A stretch of DNA of 64,000 nucleotides from Candidatus Fimivivens sp. (GTDB lineage: Bacteria > Bacillota > Clostridia > Oscillospirales > Ruminococcaceae). This document shows positions 43,488 through 51,562 of the stretch, piece after piece. The translations under genes were made by a program, and so were the position numbers. Position 1 is the stretch's first letter; each line of letters starts with the position of its first letter. Under the pieces are notes generated by a model, which did no database searches, was not told where the DNA came from, and saw nothing but the letters and a program-made list of their open reading frames with translations. The stretch is from positions 100,433-164,432 of the forward strand of contig JAYFNI010000002.1 of assembly GCA_034933525.1 (NCBI GenBank). Reading direction: 5' to 3'.

Positions 43488-43727
43488 TTAGTCAGCGTTT
43501 TCGTCCTGCTCGTAAAGTTCACATTCCCCGGTGTTCCTGATAACCTCAATCGGCTTCATATCCGGGTAAACGAACATCGCGCAACTGCTTTTTCGGTAAT
43601 CGTTGGAATAATCAGTTCCACCGTCCCGGAACAGGCAAGTCTTACACTGTTTGCAATTCTCAACCGTGCCGCCGCTCCCGAACTTCTCATTGTCATGGGC
43701 TTCAACCCACGTTTTAGCGTTTGCCAT
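43488..43727 (-). CDS. Small Cys-containing protein, candidate immunity
   Basis: 79 aa, CxxCxxC...C...C; start overlaps the MuF-ART stop (TAATG). Confidence 0.55.
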   Translation of the reverse strand: MANAKTWVEAHDNEKFGSGGTVENCKQCKTCLFRDGGTDYSNDYRKSSCAMFVYPDMKPIEVIRNTGECELYEQDENAD

Positions 43728-46177
43728 TAGTATACCTCCTGTCCTATAACTTCAATATCCATGTAGATTTTACCACCAGTTTTTTCAACCTTTGTGATTC
43801 TAAATGTCGTTCCACGCTGAAAAATCATTTCGGATTCACTACCGAACGAATATTGAGAAGAAACGCCGTCCCAACTTCGCTTTGCGCCTTGCCCGTACTG
43901 TGAAAACGGTTCGGCGTACATCATCTTTGTCCCTGCCGGGGCGTAAACGTTCATGATGATTGGTTTATGAGAAAATCCCTTGCCCTTTGAAACGCCCGTA
44001 CTGAAAAACCCGTAATCCGTTGGCGTTGTGCCTAATAGCTTCGCCGCCAGTTCCTTTTCAGAAAGGTAAAAGTCATCGGGGGCAATATTGAAGAATTTAT
44101 CCATTCCCGTATATTCTACCCCACGTTGAACCCAAATATCACTCGAATAACTGCTTTTTTCGATAATAGCGGTCATCGCGTCAATTTGCTTCTTCACCTG
44201 TCCGGGCTTGTAACCGCCGTAATTTGTACCGATTTTATCAAGGTCAACGTTACCAACGCCCAAATACGCATTTGTTCCGTATTCATACCCGCGCAACGGT
44301 TCATTGAACTTTGAATAACTGCCCGTGTAATCGTAAATCGCGTCTTTTTGCGCGGCTGTCGCTGATTGCCAAACCTCACCGCACTTTTGACGTAATAGGT
44401 CATCGGCTTCTTTAGTGTCTTTCGCCCATAACGCCGCGTCCCTGCGCTCTTGTGTGAATGGGTCTTTCGTATCCTTAATTGTAGCACTTTTCTTCAATGA
44501 AATCAATTCAGATTGCGTTTTCTTTAGATTGCTTTGAATTTCGTGGTAATGCTTGCCCTGCGCGTCAAATTCATCAAGGTCAGCCAACAACTGTTTCCAC
44601 TTGTCAGCGTCATCAGGGGAAGCACCCGCCAATTGTTGTGTGAAATAATCCTTCTTCGCTTGAATGCTTCCTTGCTTCGCGTTCCAATCAGCGGTTGAAA
44701 CGTCATCTTTCCAAATACCGCCATACGTCTTGTTTTCCAAGCCGTCAAATTCCGCTTGAAGTGTGACCTGTTGTTTGGTCAGGGCTTTGGTCTTTTCGGC
44801 GGTCAACTTCTTATCAAGAAGTTCCTGCCAATCCGTTTTGTTGATGTTCAACTGTTCAATCTGTTCTTGAAGTTCATTGAACTTGATTTTACCGGGTTCG
44901 TTATCCCAAAAGAAAGAATCAACGTCCCCGCCGTTTTGAAGTATTTCATCATGTGTGTATCCACCTGAAACGTTCATTTGTTCCTGCGTCAGCGTTTGAA
45001 GTTCGCCGTCTGCTTCGGTGATTTTCTCTTGAAGTTTCTTTTTGGTCAAATACTCCTTCTTTTCAGGCGTTACCGGGACAGGGGGAACGTCTTTCACCCA
45101 CGAAATAACCCCGCCATTGTCAACGGGGGTCAATCCTACTTTGTCACCGCCGTCAATGAATTGGTCTTTCCAATCCTTATATTTCATGTCCTGCGGGACG
45201 TAATAGCTTTTCCCGGTTTCCTCGTCACGCGCTACCCGTTCACCTTCGTCATCATCAAAGTAGGGGGCAACTGCCGACCTACACCATGGATGGAAGGGCG
45301 GGGCGGTTACGCCGGGTTCAAACTGCGACATTGGGAAGTGTTCCCCGTCCATGCTCTGACAGATTGCCGACGTGAGGGAATCCAACGTTGCGACAATCTC
45401 ATATTCTTCCACGTCAAGCGTTTCAAACGCCTTGCGCTGTGCTTCCGTGGCGAAATACGCGCTTTCGGTCATCACCAAACGCCCCGCGTTTGACTTCGAC
45501 GTGTTAAACTTCTTCGCAATCGCCTTTATTGCGTCATCGGGGGCTTTCCCCAATATCATGTTTTGGGTCAACTGTGTGTGAACCTCGGAAAGTAAGTCGT
45601 TTTTCTGTTTCCAAATACGGTCACTGAACGTCTGCTTGTCGGTTGTCCACGGGTTTGAAAGTACACTTTCAATTTGATGGGGATTCAAGGAAGCAACGTC
45701 CCACCCAACACCAACGCCCTTTTGTAACTCAAACGCTGTGTGATAATAATTGTCTGTGTAAATCTTCCCGAATAGGGAAGTGGTCTGTTTCGCCGTCTGC
45801 CCGTAAAGCTGTTCAACCGTTGCTTGTGTTTTCAGTTTCAAGGCTTCCAGTTTGGAAACGTGAAAACGTGCCGACGCATTTTCAAGCTGTTTCATGAACG
45901 CCGGGTCAATCATCGCGTCCTTGCCATACTTGATATATTCGGTCACGTCCCATTTGAATTCAGCTAAATCCTTGCCCGTCAACCATTGTCGCGCTTCTGC
46001 AAGCGTGATTTGGTTGTTCTTCGCAAAACGCCCATACCATTGTTCAATTTGTTCATCAAGTTTTTTCTGTGCAAGATTGAACTGCTTTTCAACGGCGGCG
46101 GTGTAGCTTCCCGCGCTTTGGTTTTTCGCGGCTTCAAGAATTTCAGCCCTGCGCCGCCAATACTCCGCGTTTTGCAT
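43727..46177 (-). CDS. MuF/SPP1 gp7-like minor head protein fused to a C-terminal ADP-ribosyltransferase (VIP2/ADPrib_exo_Tox-like)
   Basis: MuF: RLVMTESAY, TSAICQSMDG, PPFHPWCRS. ART: YTGSYSKFNEPLR, VQRG, GFFSTG, ESEMIFQRG. Confidence 0.85.
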   Translation of the reverse strand: MQNAEYWRRRAEILEAAKNQSAGSYTAAVEKQFNLAQKKLDEQIEQWYGRFAKNNQITLAEARQWLTGKDLAEFKWDVTEYIKYGKDAMIDPAFMKQLENASARFHVSKLEALKLKTQATVEQLYGQTAKQTTSLFGKIYTDNYYHTAFELQKGVGVGWDVASLNPHQIESVLSNPWTTDKQTFSDRIWKQKNDLLSEVHTQLTQNMILGKAPDDAIKAIAKKFNTSKSNAGRLVMTESAYFATEAQRKAFETLDVEEYEIVATLDSLTSAICQSMDGEHFPMSQFEPGVTAPPFHPWCRSAVAPYFDDDEGERVARDEETGKSYYVPQDMKYKDWKDQFIDGGDKVGLTPVDNGGVISWVKDVPPVPVTPEKKEYLTKKKLQEKITEADGELQTLTQEQMNVSGGYTHDEILQNGGDVDSFFWDNEPGKIKFNELQEQIEQLNINKTDWQELLDKKLTAEKTKALTKQQVTLQAEFDGLENKTYGGIWKDDVSTADWNAKQGSIQAKKDYFTQQLAGASPDDADKWKQLLADLDEFDAQGKHYHEIQSNLKKTQSELISLKKSATIKDTKDPFTQERRDAALWAKDTKEADDLLRQKCGEVWQSATAAQKDAIYDYTGSYSKFNEPLRGYEYGTNAYLGVGNVDLDKIGTNYGGYKPGQVKKQIDAMTAIIEKSSYSSDIWVQRGVEYTGMDKFFNIAPDDFYLSEKELAAKLLGTTPTDYGFFSTGVSKGKGFSHKPIIMNVYAPAGTKMMYAEPFSQYGQGAKRSWDGVSSQYSFGSESEMIFQRGTTFRITKVEKTGGKIYMDIEVIGQEVY

Positions 46178-46209
46178 ACACCATCACCGCCTTTCATGCT
46201 CTAATGTGT

Positions 46210-49943: not shown

Positions 49944-50399
49944 TCATTTGAAACAATGGTCAGTTGGATTTTTCTTTATCGCTTCATCAAGTGCCGTGTT
50001 ATGTAGCCGGAACAAATAACGCAAGTCTACGACCTCAACAATATCCTGAATCTGCTCCCATTTTTTGAAATTCAAATATCGTTCTTGAAGAATTAACTTC
50101 AATTTCGGTTTGTCAACCGCGTCAATCACACGCCGAATGTCTATCCTTGCCCGAATATAGCGGTCATTCTCGGCTTGAATCTCACGTTCAAGGTCAACAA
50201 TCTTTGTAACGGTGTTCGCTACCTTATCCGACCGTTCGCCCCCTTGCACCCGCTCCGTCGATAAATCAGGGGACGAAATTGATTCAGCGACCGACCGCAA
50301 CCGTTCTAATTCGTCTTTATTTGCCTGAATCAAACGGTCAAGATAGAACGCTTGATTCAGAAATTCTTTTATACTCATAGGCTTCCCCCTCACAAACAA
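49944..50399 (-). CDS. Late transcriptional activator-like (DUF1492/ArpU-type)
   Basis: KEFLNQA..LD..I, L..RYL..KKWEQI, H..AL; position before terS. Confidence 0.7.
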   Translation of the reverse strand: MFVRGKPMSIKEFLNQAFYLDRLIQANKDELERLRSVAESISSPDLSTERVQGGERSDKVANTVTKIVDLEREIQAENDRYIRARIDIRRVIDAVDKPKLKLILQERYLNFKKWEQIQDIVEVVDLRYLFRLHNTALDEAIKKNPTDHCFK

Positions 50400-50666
50400 T
50401 CTTGAACCCGTACATCTTGAACCGGGTTAAACCCGCATAGTATAAGGATTTTTATTATTGAGCGGTTCAAGTTCAAGGTCTTTCCCTTATTCTTATATAT
50501 TTAGCCTTTTTCATTTTCAAAAATGAAAGTATGCTATTCTTGCATAAGAAAGTAAAAACATCTTGACCATCTTGAACTGCACCCCGAAAAATCAGTAATA
50601 GCGCGGGTTTGAAGCGGTTCAAGATTAAAAAATTAACCTTGAACCATCTTGAACCGACCATGAACC
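50399..50666. repeat. Iteron-like ATCTTGAACC array with two ~65-nt inverted arms around an AT-rich core (candidate origin)
   Basis: About 10 copies or variants, in both orientations, between 50399 and 50666. Confidence 0.6.
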
Positions 50667-51562
50667 AAATATTTTTCTGCCATGCTCAACAATCCCCGAA
50701 TATACGGTAACCGCGCAATCTGTTTCAACCATTCACCGGGGATTGCACCTTCACCATACTTCAACCCTGCCAAGCCGCCCGTGATAGCCGCTATCGTGTC
50801 CGTGTCCCCGCCAAGGTTTACCGCTGTCAATACTGCGTCCCGGTAATTGTCCGTCGTGATAAAACACCACAACGCGGCTTCCAAGGTATCAATCACATAG
50901 CCCGTTGATTTGATTTCGTCCCGCGTCAACTCACCAATGCGCAGAATCCGGGCGAATGCTCCCGTAGGGTCACCCCTGAAAGTGATTAAACTGTATGCCG
51001 ATTTCAACCAGTCATCAACGCCACGATTCAAGGTGTCAACCATTTCAACGAAAAATTCACACGCCAACAGGTTCAATTCATGTCCGTGGGTCAGGGCGGC
51101 ATATTCACGGGTAACCTGTAATTTGTCTGTAATATCCAAAGGCAGAAACGCAAGGGGCAACATTCGCATAAGCGCACCGTTCCCATTATCGTATTCACCG
51201 TTCAACCCCCACGGCTTAACGCCATCCACAAAATTTGTAATCGCCCTTTTCGTTGTATTTCCCACATCAAAGACTTTTTCATACGGCGTGAAGTGTCCAC
51301 CAAATAACCAGTCCGAAAAGTTCACCATACATTGATAAGGTTCAGGCTGTTTCCAGTCTGCTAAATTTTCAATCGTCGCAAGGGTCATTGACGTGTCATC
51401 GCTCCACGTTCCGGGCGGCTGATTATGCGTCCCGAACCCGCGCATATCAACAACAGGATTTTCATCAAGTTCAACGCGGGTTTTGAACTCCACGGGAACA
51501 CCCAAAGCGTCACCTACAATGAAGCCAAGCACCGCGTCAGTTAGTTTTGTTTTTCTAGCCAT
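50633..51562 (-). CDS. ADP-ribosylglycohydrolase (DraG/ARH family)
   Basis: GDALG, WSDDTSM, GNGALMR, TH, GYVIDTLEAA, GGDTDT metal-binding motifs. Confidence 0.92.
   Translation of the reverse strand: MARKTKLTDAVLGFIVGDALGVPVEFKTRVELDENPVVDMRGFGTHNQPPGTWSDDTSMTLATIENLADWKQPEPYQCMVNFSDWLFGGHFTPYEKVFDVGNTTKRAITNFVDGVKPWGLNGEYDNGNGALMRMLPLAFLPLDITDKLQVTREYAALTHGHELNLLACEFFVEMVDTLNRGVDDWLKSAYSLITFRGDPTGAFARILRIGELTRDEIKSTGYVIDTLEAALWCFITTDNYRDAVLTAVNLGGDTDTIAAITGGLAGLKYGEGAIPGEWLKQIARLPYIRGLLSMAEKYLVHGRFKMVQG

Follow-up and report, generated by a model that had tools for sequence, protein, structure and literature searches.

A MuF ADP-ribosyltransferase and an ADP-ribosyl-arginine hydrolase in one Clostridia prophage: a probable toxin with two-layer immunity

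Why would a single prophage encode both an enzyme predicted to attach ADP-ribose to proteins and one predicted to remove it? The question is raised by the window, the stretch of 64,000 nucleotides analyzed here, in which an earlier note had recognized a late ExE-type ADP-ribosyltransferase (ART) and, about 4.5 kb away, a complete DraG-like ADP-ribosylhydrolase (ARH) with SDDT and DTDT motifs. The coordinates, the motifs, and the modules to which both genes belong were confirmed. The features that matter for the pair are the following.

43488..43727, minus strand: orf79, 79 aa, with four invariant cysteines (C28, C31, C49, and C69) and K58-P59 (family HMM)
43727..46177, minus strand: MuF-ART polymorphic toxin, 816 aa (PF04233, PF03496, and PHROG 16625)
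49857..49879, minus strand: terminator-like hairpin with a 10-bp stem, 6 G-C pairs, and a T-tail (consensus scan only)
49944..50399, minus strand: DUF1492 transcription regulator (PF07374; PHROG 36, "transcriptional regulator")
50633..51562, minus strand: DraG/Tri1-like ADP-ribosyl(arginine) hydrolase (ARH), 309 aa, with an intact active site (PF03747)

The toxin, the hydrolase, and the small partner

The toxin gene encodes a MuF/SPP1-gp7 minor capsid domain (residues ~1 to 360), a conserved middle region (~360 to 580), and an R-S-ExE ADP-ribosyltransferase domain (~580 to 816; nucleotides 43730 to 44440). The N-terminus matched Phage_Mu_F (PF04233; residues 198 to 303, E = 3e-11), the SPP1 gp7 models (NCBIfam phageSPP1_gp7; TIGR01641, E = 9e-22), and PHROG 115 ("minor head protein"), and the C-terminus matched ADPrib_exo_Tox (PF03496; residues 601 to 799, E = 8e-21). 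Residues R629, S726, and E781-x-E783 were unchanged across 15 diverse homologs. The PDB sequence matches to C3larvin and C3 were weak. Residues 527 to 813 matched PHROG 16625 ("Bxa ADP-ribosyl transferase"; E = 1e-31), and the protein is 34% identical (E = 6e-38) to the 869-aa Bxa ortholog of B. acidifaciens, which has its ExE motif at 818 to 820 and a neighboring ARH with the E15 of BAH. By homology, we place the window ART in the Bxa family. The gene also shows the traits of a MuF polymorphic toxin: a MuF N-terminus, a C-terminal toxin domain known from other toxin systems, a place in the head/packaging module of a prophage, and a small ORF (<150 aa) directly downstream.

The hydrolase matches ADP_ribosyl_GH (PF03747) along its full length (E = 5e-67). 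It carries GDALG at position 17, PVEF (with E25), SDDT at 54 to 57, and DTDT at 253 to 256, and residues D18, E25, D55, D56, D253, D255, and T256 showed no variation among relatives. Its PDB sequence matches were Lmo0067 (8za7, E = 1e-69), Tri1 (6dre, E = 8e-40), and DraG (E = 1e-28), which agrees with the previous proposal that it is an arginine-specific hydrolase of the DraG type. The best NCBIfam model was that of Tri1 (NF041672, E = 4e-53), a match that falls far short of the equivalog cutoff (180 versus 490 bits) and covers profile positions 69 to 349 of 361, the N-terminal occluding extension of Tri1 (~68 residues) being absent. The score against the DraG model (TIGR02662) was also below its equivalog cutoff (152 versus 337 bits), and neither DraT nor nif context was found anywhere in the window. 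We predict from these matches that the ARH is an enzymatic immunity protein reversing the modification made by the ART.

Both genes are on the minus strand, the ARH gene lying upstream of the ART gene with a gap of 4456 nt and five genes between them. The MuF-ART gene sits in the late head-morphogenesis block (terS, terL, portal, MuF-ART, scaffold, and major capsid protein), and the ARH gene ends the replication block, after a D5-like primase/helicase and with a 22-nt overlap with the preceding orf140. The ARH gene immediately precedes the gene of the DUF1492 late regulator, which lies between the early/middle block and that of the packaging and head genes, and the order of ARH, DUF1492, and terS/terL is kept in all relatives with an upstream ARH. 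The terminator-like hairpin falls between the DUF1492 gene and terS and is a possible boundary between the ARH transcript and the late ART operon. The ARH is probably on a different transcript from the toxin, an arrangement unusual for an immunity gene that leaves room for a function in timing. Because the early/middle operon ends with the ARH gene, the eraser should be present before the late toxin appears.

The small ORF after the toxin gene, orf79, was missed in the earlier note. Its start overlaps the stop codon of the ART gene. The orf79-family HMM matched 172 of the fetched loci, all of which carry the ART (172/172), usually with a gene start 0 to 50 nt past the ART stop; it matched no non-ART locus fetched and no Bacteroidales locus. 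In 19 loci, orf79 and the ARH are joined in frame, with orf79 on the N-terminal side, such fusions occurring in Desulfovibrio prophages. The restriction of orf79 to the neighborhood of this ART, together with these fusions, amounts to a Rosetta-stone link. The family comprises 117 representative clusters among 1.84 billion proteins; orf79 had no match in Pfam, PHROG, NCBIfam, or PADLOC, and a Foldseek search with its AF2 model (pLDDT of 85) found none in the PDB or BFVD. Not annotated before, orf79 is a third component whose distribution follows this toxin clade, and we predict that it is the cognate nonenzymatic partner of the ART, as immunity protein or adaptor. The family may represent a novel kind of ART inhibitor or adaptor that can be fused to the eraser.

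Linkage of the ART and the ARH across phages

We measured the association in IMG/VR loci selected by their MuF N-terminus alone, a choice blind to both ART and ARH, and required flanks of at least 6 kb (upstream) and 1.5 kb (downstream). The ARH was present in 10 of the 11 ART-bearing loci (one lacked it) and in 0 of the 32 loci with other MuF C-termini. After clustering of the MuF proteins at 99, 95, 90, and 80% identity, the Fisher P values were 1e-7, 7e-7, 7e-6, and only 3e-3, respectively, the samples being phylogenetically nonindependent. The comparison with chance that had been suggested for this pair is thus strongly positive. When loci were anchored on the ART, an ARH was found at most 10 kb away in 39 of 45 IMG/VR loci and in 29 of 32 well-covered GTDB species-representative loci, with hosts among Clostridia, Desulfovibrionaceae, Treponema, Bacteroidales, and Synergistales. 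About 10% of the well-covered ART loci had no ARH within 10 kb (L150, L151, L156, L175, L271, L279, and others). Conversely, the ART was present in 33 of the 37 loci anchored on the ARH. ARH homologs are rare in records of isolated phages overall (55 of 50,697) and are found in ~90% of the well-covered ART loci, which makes the pairing more than a matter of chance. The linkage of ART and ARH is well above random expectation.

This linkage is maintained through rearrangement, since the ARH occupies four positions relative to the ART: upstream, as in the window; downstream on the same strand after orf79; fused to orf79; and downstream in divergent orientation. The upstream placement is kept in 18 IMG/VR and 8 GTDB well-covered loci, and the ARH lies next to the toxin gene in many relatives from the same ART clade. 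The functional link between the two genes that the earlier note had assumed is supported by the co-occurrence, the arrangements, and the fusion. Two ART-bearing lineages (L002 and L138/L182) have a degraded ARH and retain orf79, which fits two redundant layers of immunity. In related phages, the MuF C-terminus can be exchanged for other domains, such as the PBECR2 nuclease, and an intact ARH without ART was found in four loci, showing that the ARH can outlast its own ART. The MuF protein of these loci ends in the PBECR2 nuclease in two (L079 and L082) and in a non-ART region with no assigned domain in one (L064); no MuF was detected in the last (L101). The orphan ARHs occupy the same upstream position, and all but one share 95% identity or more with ARHs from phages that carry the ART. 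These natural variants, in which the eraser was relocated, fused, decayed, or orphaned after a toxin swap, offer comparisons for the role of each immunity layer.

Comparison with described systems

The idea that such a pairing had not been described in phages is outdated. ART-ARG pairs were noted in Aeromonas phages in 2022 (PMC9503650), and a MuF-ART with ARH immunity was published for the Bacteroides stercoris prophage PhiBxa (Alexei et al., J Biol Chem 2024; PMC11699363). In the latter, Bxa is a MuF-ART with promiscuous and lethal arginine-directed activity, BAH is an ARH that acts as enzymatic immunity by reversing the arginine ADP-ribosylation made by Bxa, and Bsi is a small immunity protein that binds and blocks Bxa (PMC11699363). 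The window and the Bxa system share the MuF N-terminus, the middle region, the C-terminal R-S-ExE ART, and the location in the head-morphogenesis block of a prophage; their ART domains are homologous and have the catalytic ExE. Both toxins are accompanied by a DraG-superfamily hydrolase with a catalytic glutamate and metal-binding aspartates and by a small protein, predicted to be nonenzymatic in the window. Unlike BAH, which adjoins its toxin, the window ARH is encoded 4.5 kb upstream, and it belongs to the Tri1/DraG/Lmo0067 branch, a different ARH subfamily, with only 21% identity to the BAH ortholog. The small partner, with its 79 residues and four cysteines, is unrelated to Bsi; compared with the Bsi-like ORF (107 aa) of locus L284, it showed no similarity. 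For two of the three parts, function is therefore transferred from the Bxa system by analogy. The hosts also differ, that of the window prophage being a Clostridia spore-former and that of the experimentally studied Bxa system a Bacteroides. The window is a rearranged relative of the Bxa-type toxin-immunity system, whose design is not confined to Bacteroides: a cassette that pairs a capsid-borne ART, predicted to be arginine-specific, with an eraser is conserved in at least five lineages from gut and anaerobic habitats.

The same chemistry is found in Tre1/Tri1, a type VI effector-immunity pair of Serratia proteamaculans (PMC8120803; structure 6DRE), where an R-S-E arginine-specific ART is countered by a DraG-like hydrolase, as predicted for the window. 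Tri1 joins hydrolysis and occlusion in one protein (PMC8120803, section 5.6); these activities would be divided between ARH and orf79 in the window and reunited in the Desulfovibrio fusions. Delivery differs, by the T6SS for Tre1 and, as predicted, by the phage capsid for the window toxin. For temperate phages of Firmicutes, Jamet et al. (2017, PMC5576092) described MuF N-termini with exchangeable C-terminal toxins followed by a small ORF; Apk2 is neutralized by a product-reversing hydrolase and a binding immunity protein (Apk2/Aph1/Tis1, PMC10083569). The window resembles these systems in its MuF toxin, downstream small ORF, and predicted combination of reversing hydrolase and binding partner. 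It differs in its chemistry, ADP-ribosylation rather than (p)ppApp synthesis or nuclease activity, and in that the reversing enzyme is not adjacent. In the DraT/DraG cycle of nitrogen fixers, too, an R-S-E ART mono-ADP-ribosylates arginine and a metal-dependent hydrolase of the DraG fold reverses the modification, but the window has no DraT homolog, nitrogenase context, or PII-type regulation, and its setting is one of conflict (toxin and immunity) rather than of metabolic regulation.

Toxin immunity and its alternatives

The published Bxa/BAH/Bsi pairing and the membership of the window ART in the Bxa family make a toxin with two-layer immunity the best explanation, and we give a probability of about 70% to a three-part MuF polymorphic-toxin module composed of the ART, orf79, and the ARH. 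Since the ART rides on a MuF minor capsid protein, it would be synthesized late and packaged in the head, probably entering the recipient cell along with the DNA. Its predicted activity is the mono-ADP-ribosylation of bacterial proteins on arginine. The cell producing virions would be shielded twice: the ART would be bound by orf79, whose translation is coupled to that of the toxin, and the ARH would hydrolyze whatever ADP-ribosyl-arginine forms. In this phage lineage, the ARH gene would have left the toxin cassette and become the last gene of the early/middle operon. Protection of the producing cell, a secondary option in the earlier note, is the best supported of its proposals; experiments on the homologous Bxa/BAH/Bsi system demonstrated this mechanism (PMC11699363), which is extended here by analogy.

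The main proposal of that note was a timed pulse, in which a few ART molecules brought by the virion mark host proteins at entry and the early/middle ARH later erases the marks, for example as a switch for host takeover or between lysis and lysogeny. The position of the upstream ARH fits such timing, since it is the last gene of the replication operon, overlaps the gene before it, and is set apart from the late operon by the regulator gene and the terminator-like hairpin; its retention in the 18 IMG/VR and 8 GTDB loci and the proposal that low-toxicity MuF-ARTs steer the lysis-lysogeny decision (Jamet et al., PMC5576092) point the same way. However, in the three other arrangements the ARH is cotranscribed with the toxin, fused to the small partner beside it, or divergently adjacent, so temporal separation is not a conserved property of the pair, and some lineages with the upstream placement do without a functional ARH. 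As a general function, the reversible switch is left unsupported by this lack of separation in most relatives, and we consider the pulse unlikely. Its narrower form, in which the relocated ARH was co-opted as a timer, erasing the marks once it is made from the earliest phage transcripts, and a self-limiting pulse of ADP-ribosylation biases host takeover or lysis-lysogeny in phages with the upstream placement, seems rather unlikely as well. A pulse would be compatible with an ARH that additionally protects the producer cell.

It is also conceivable that the ARH acts mainly on foreign ADP-ribosylation, made by host ART defenses or by the ARTs of competing phages, its association with its own ART being secondary. 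The intact orphan ARHs at the same position would fit this role, as would the sporadic ARH/ARG domains of jumbo phages (PMC9503650) and the suggestion, discussed for Bxa, that additional immunity genes found in clusters of MuF toxins may guard against noncognate toxins (PMC11699363). Against this, the ARH is absent from all related non-ART phages of the unbiased sample, nearly all ARH-anchored loci have the ART, and the fusion to the ART-specific orf79 ties the ARH to this toxin; moreover, PADLOC defense models gave no match, and known ART defenses such as DarT target DNA, their marks being removed by macro or NADAR domains (PMC11825919). We regard a mainly foreign target as quite improbable. 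That the two genes are unrelated passengers sharing one genome by chance is hardly credible: their distance and different modules would allow it, but it is contradicted by the co-occurrence, the multiple arrangements, and the orf79-ARH fusion. ARH genes in prophages of Clostridia, Desulfovibrio, and Treponema can be read as toxin-linked immunity rather than as generic metabolic hydrolases.

The prophage is integrated beside host genes; an endolysin is encoded at 24172-25677, and a CspB-like protease of the host at 14186-15907. The host is a gut-type Clostridia bacterium and a spore-former.

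The two enzymes in the prophage

A myovirus-type prophage lies on the minus strand of the window, from about position 24,000 to the end. One of the host genes adjoining it encodes a CspB-like germination protease, a sign that the host is a spore former of the Clostridia. An exact protein match was confined to a Logan assembly of SRR27243495, and the best relative in GTDB was 71% identical. The region that carries the two enzymes is organized as follows.

Genes of the region, in transcription order, with the hairpin that lies among them
51960-53867, minus strand: D5-like primase/helicase
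51541-51963, minus strand: orf140, the gene before the hydrolase gene
50633-51562, minus strand: ARH, a DraG/Tri1-like ADP-ribosylhydrolase
49944-50399, minus strand: DUF1492 regulator
49857-49879, minus strand: terminator-like hairpin with a 10-bp stem, 6 G-C pairs and a T-run (consensus match only)
49403-49849, minus strand: terS
48108-49367, minus strand: terL
46514-48028, minus strand: SPP1-type portal
46210-46608, minus strand: small dGTP_diPhyd_N protein (PF18909, E = 8e-26; PHROG 801)
43727-46177, minus strand: MuF-ART, a MuF minor capsid protein with a C-terminal ADP-ribosyltransferase (Phage_Mu_F and ADPrib_exo_Tox)
43488-43727, minus strand: orf79, a small protein gene
42652-43284, minus strand: scaffold
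41252-42628, minus strand: major capsid protein

The 816-aa MuF-ART combines the domains Phage_Mu_F (E = 3e-11) and ADPrib_exo_Tox (E = 8e-21), and its R-S-ExE residues (R629, S726, E781 and E783) were invariant in an alignment of 15 homologues reaching down to 45% identity. The 309-aa ARH is covered over its full length by the ADP_ribosyl_GH domain (E = 5e-67); its motifs GDALG, PVEF (with the catalytic Glu E25), SDDT (54-57) and DTDT (253-256) were invariant in 11 homologues. Domains and invariant residues agree with the earlier note, which had described an ExE-type transferase and a complete hydrolase with SDDT and DTDT, and the coordinates (43727-46177 and 50633-51562) bear out the spacing of 4.5 kb that it gave. 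The solved structures nearest to the ARH by sequence were Listeria Lmo0067 (8za7, 1e-69), a Thermus ARH (4e-40), Tri1 (6dre, 8e-40) and DraG (1e-28); the match to ARH3 was confined to a C-terminal segment. A literature search by the name Lmo0067, the closest solved structure, found no paper. The top NCBIfam models were those of Tri1 and DraG, both scoring far under their equivalog cutoffs. Given these structures and scores, the window ARH is, as judged from its sequence, a member of the arginine-specific DraG/Tri1 branch and an orthologue of neither DraG nor Tri1.

In this lineage the ARH gene is the last of the early/middle operon, where it overlaps orf140, and is outside the toxin cassette. 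Downstream of it stand the DUF1492 regulator and the hairpin at 49857-49879, both before terS. This hairpin, between the regulator gene and terS, is the strongest terminator-like one of the region; a promoter-like site (49923-49896) is found just upstream of it, and it may correspond to the early/late transcript boundary.

Two other features of the prophage were observed. The gene at 46210-46608, between the portal and MuF-ART genes, encodes the N-terminal domain alone of a dATP/dGTP diphosphohydrolase; the Logan assembly has it as a 109-aa protein, and it is found at the same position in the closest relatives only (L001, L002 and L032). A diversity-generating retroelement (26849-30354, minus strand) targets the tail fibre, with all 25 mismatches between template and variable repeats at template adenines (14 A>G, 6 A>T and 5 A>C).

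Components of the retroelement
26849-27901, minus strand: reverse transcriptase (RVT_1, E = 7e-17)
28075-28201, minus strand: template repeat, 127 nt
28299-28425, minus strand: variable repeat (3'-terminal part of the tail-fibre gene)
28291-30354, minus strand: tail-fibre gene

Co-occurrence and arrangements of the pair

A tblastn search of isolated phages revealed no close relative with a full MuF-ART; genomic context was therefore taken from contigs in IMG/VR and GTDB. In these isolated phages, the MuF half alone matched phages of C. difficile, Brevibacillus and Streptococcus, and the ARH matched mainly jumbo, Streptomyces and Aeromonas phages; any homologue of the window ARH was present in 55 of 50,697 records, which gives the background rate. 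Locus scans with single proteins returned 3 loci (ARH) and 10 loci (MuF N-terminus), too few for controls, and were replaced by alignment-based scans. In a first ART-anchored set of 37 IMG/VR loci, the ARH was nearly always there given enough flank.

The co-occurrence test proposed in the earlier note was run on an unbiased sample, anchored on the MuF N-terminal domain and blind to both ART and ARH, consisting of the 80 closest IMG/VR loci, counted where the MuF gene had at least 6 kb of upstream and 1.5 kb of downstream sequence. The ARH was found in 10 of the 11 loci with an ART C-terminus and in none of the 32 with other C-termini (Fisher P = 1e-7, 7e-7, 7e-6 and 3e-3 when MuF proteins were clustered at 99, 95, 90 and 80% identity, respectively). 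Wider ART scans, with ARH counted within 10 kb, identified it in 39 of 45 well-covered IMG/VR loci (from the best 80 of 309 ART matches) and in 29 of 32 such loci from GTDB species-representative genomes, the hosts being Clostridia, Desulfovibrionaceae, Treponema, Bacteroidales and Synergistales. The reverse, ARH-anchored test found an ART in 33 of 37 well-covered loci. About 10% of ART loci carried no ARH within 10 kb, most of them keeping orf79, so the hydrolase is common and not obligatory. Pairwise identities of ART and ARH were only moderately correlated (Spearman 0.38); several fused loci were wrongly labelled as upstream in that set, and the value carries no weight here.

The pair occurs in four arrangements. 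The ARH can be upstream, with the replication genes on one side and DUF1492 on the other, as it is in the window; on the same strand in the order ART, orf79, ARH; provided with an in-frame N-terminal orf79-like domain, directly after the ART; or divergent, just downstream of the ART. These samples are phylogenetically non-independent; even so, the persistence of the pairing through four arrangements is, from the sequences compared, hard to explain without selection for it. In most lineages the ARH is beside the toxin or co-transcribed with it. In a midpoint-rooted neighbor-joining distance tree, the window ARH fell outside the main clade of upstream placement. Two genome contexts are unusual: in a Clostridia MAG (L285:8189-11954) a 265-aa ARH precedes a neighboring pair of ORFs with ART domains (518 and 439 aa), and in a Treponema MAG (L265:4937-10318) the ART is part of a 1793-aa protein and the ARH comes after it.

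The small protein encoded after the toxin

The start of orf79 (79 aa) overlaps the ART stop codon. Neither orf79 nor orf140 had a match in Pfam, PHROGs, NCBIfam or PADLOC. An HMM built from orf79 homologues matched 172 fetched loci, all 172 with this ART, and gave zero matches among the fetched non-ART loci; the orf79-like start is usually 0 to 50 nt past the ART stop. Among 1.84 billion proteins the family accounts for about 117 representative clusters, and C28, C31, C49, C69 and K58-P59 were invariant in 63 members. One continuous frame of 381 to 398 aa joins an orf79-like domain to the ARH in 19 loci, most of them in Desulfovibrio prophages; in those of Desulfovibrio type it directly follows the ART gene (L030, L031, L033, L034, L035, L102, L262, L263, L266, L267, L269, L270, L273, L274, L276 and L277; e.g., L035:10688-11854). 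Such an in-frame fusion is a classical sign that orf79 and the ARH act together.

An AF2 model of orf79 from a 10-sequence alignment was discarded (pLDDT 42). The model from 63 sequences reached pLDDT 85, and Foldseek retrieved no PDB match and no significant BFVD match for it; the predicted fold thus yields no functional clue. In three ART loci lacking the ARH (L150:10933-11349, L151:10963-11343 and L156:10971-11378), the orf79 homologue is followed by an ORF of conserved size (126 to 138 aa), which could be a candidate alternative second immunity protein.

Proposed immunity, rival readings and known systems

We favor, with a probability of about 70%, the reading of this module as a capsid-associated ART toxin with two layers of immunity. 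This fits an ARH that is adjacent to the toxin or co-transcribed with it in most lineages and that, in some lineages, is joined to the small protein specific to the ART. The ART would be a late product, part of a head protein and, by what is known of MuF biology, probably delivered with the DNA. The orf79 protein, whose translation is coupled to that of the toxin, is its predicted binding partner, and the ARH would strip ADP-ribose from arginines modified in the producing cell. Its early/middle operon, upstream of DUF1492 and the hairpin, would have the eraser made ahead of the late toxin, in keeping with pre-emptive immunity. Two ART lineages that retain orf79 show ARH decay, as expected if the layers are partly redundant: with ART and orf79 intact, one pseudogene (L002:3246-3850) has lost residues ~51-154, including SDDT, and is frameshifted, and others (L138:3106-3819 and L182:4882-5595) lack the N-terminal ~96 residues.

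The same early/middle placement allows, just as well, the timed pulse proposed in the earlier note, where the injected ART sets marks that the ARH removes at an early stage of infection; sequence does not separate this from pre-emptive immunity, and we regard it as unlikely. That the ARH mainly counters foreign ADP-ribosylation seems more doubtful still. In its favor are four orphan ARHs that occupy the upstream position (L079, L082, L064 and L101). These look like recent toxin swaps with the distal ARH left in place; against such a role, the ARH is absent from all 32 non-ART phages of the MuF-anchored sample. Three of these orphans share at least 95% identity with ARHs from phages that carry the ART. 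The MuF C-terminus is a PBECR2 nuclease in L079 (intact ARH 6396-7304, MuF 11529-13355) and L082 (5917-6954 and 11904-13409), and an unassigned domain in the orphan loci L057 and L064; no MuF was detected in L101. This suggests that orphan ARHs are hydrolases left behind by recent swaps of the toxin cassette.

Toxin-and-immunity modules of this kind have precedents. Temperate phages have a family of polymorphic toxins defined by MuF proteins that end in toxin domains, with small ORFs after them; 14% of the cases were ARTs (PMC5576092). As reported in PMC11699363, Bxa, the MuF-ART of a Bacteroides stercoris prophage, causes lethal, promiscuous arginine ADP-ribosylation in bacteria and is neutralized by two neighboring genes, encoding BAH, an ARH that reverses the modification unless mutated (E15A), and Bsi, a small Bxa-binding protein. 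The window ART matches PHROG 16625 "Bxa ADP-ribosyl transferase" (E = 1e-31) and is 34% identical to an 869-aa protein of Bacteroides acidifaciens, whose ExE ends at E820 and whose neighboring ARH has Glu15, as in the published numbering of Bxa and BAH; on these similarities it belongs to the Bxa family. The pairing, which the earlier note did not recognize as a published phage system, is therefore an already described one.

The ART is homologous to Bxa; the other parts differ. The window ARH is a distant superfamily relative of BAH (21% identical to a BAH orthologue) from another branch, closest to Tri1, DraG and Lmo0067; orf79 and Bsi are unrelated; and the hydrolase gene has moved 4.5 kb away, into another expression block. 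The pairing itself would not surprise a specialist; the novelty lies in how widely it occurs across phyla, in the orf79 family, in the orf79-ARH fusion and in the relocation of the ARH, and these natural variants are useful. In the Tre1/Tri1 pair of T6SS, a single protein combines occlusion of the ART with hydrolysis of its product (PMC8120803); the Desulfovibrio-type fusion is similar in architecture to this bifunctional Tri1, but its N-terminus is unrelated to the annotated Tri1 extension.
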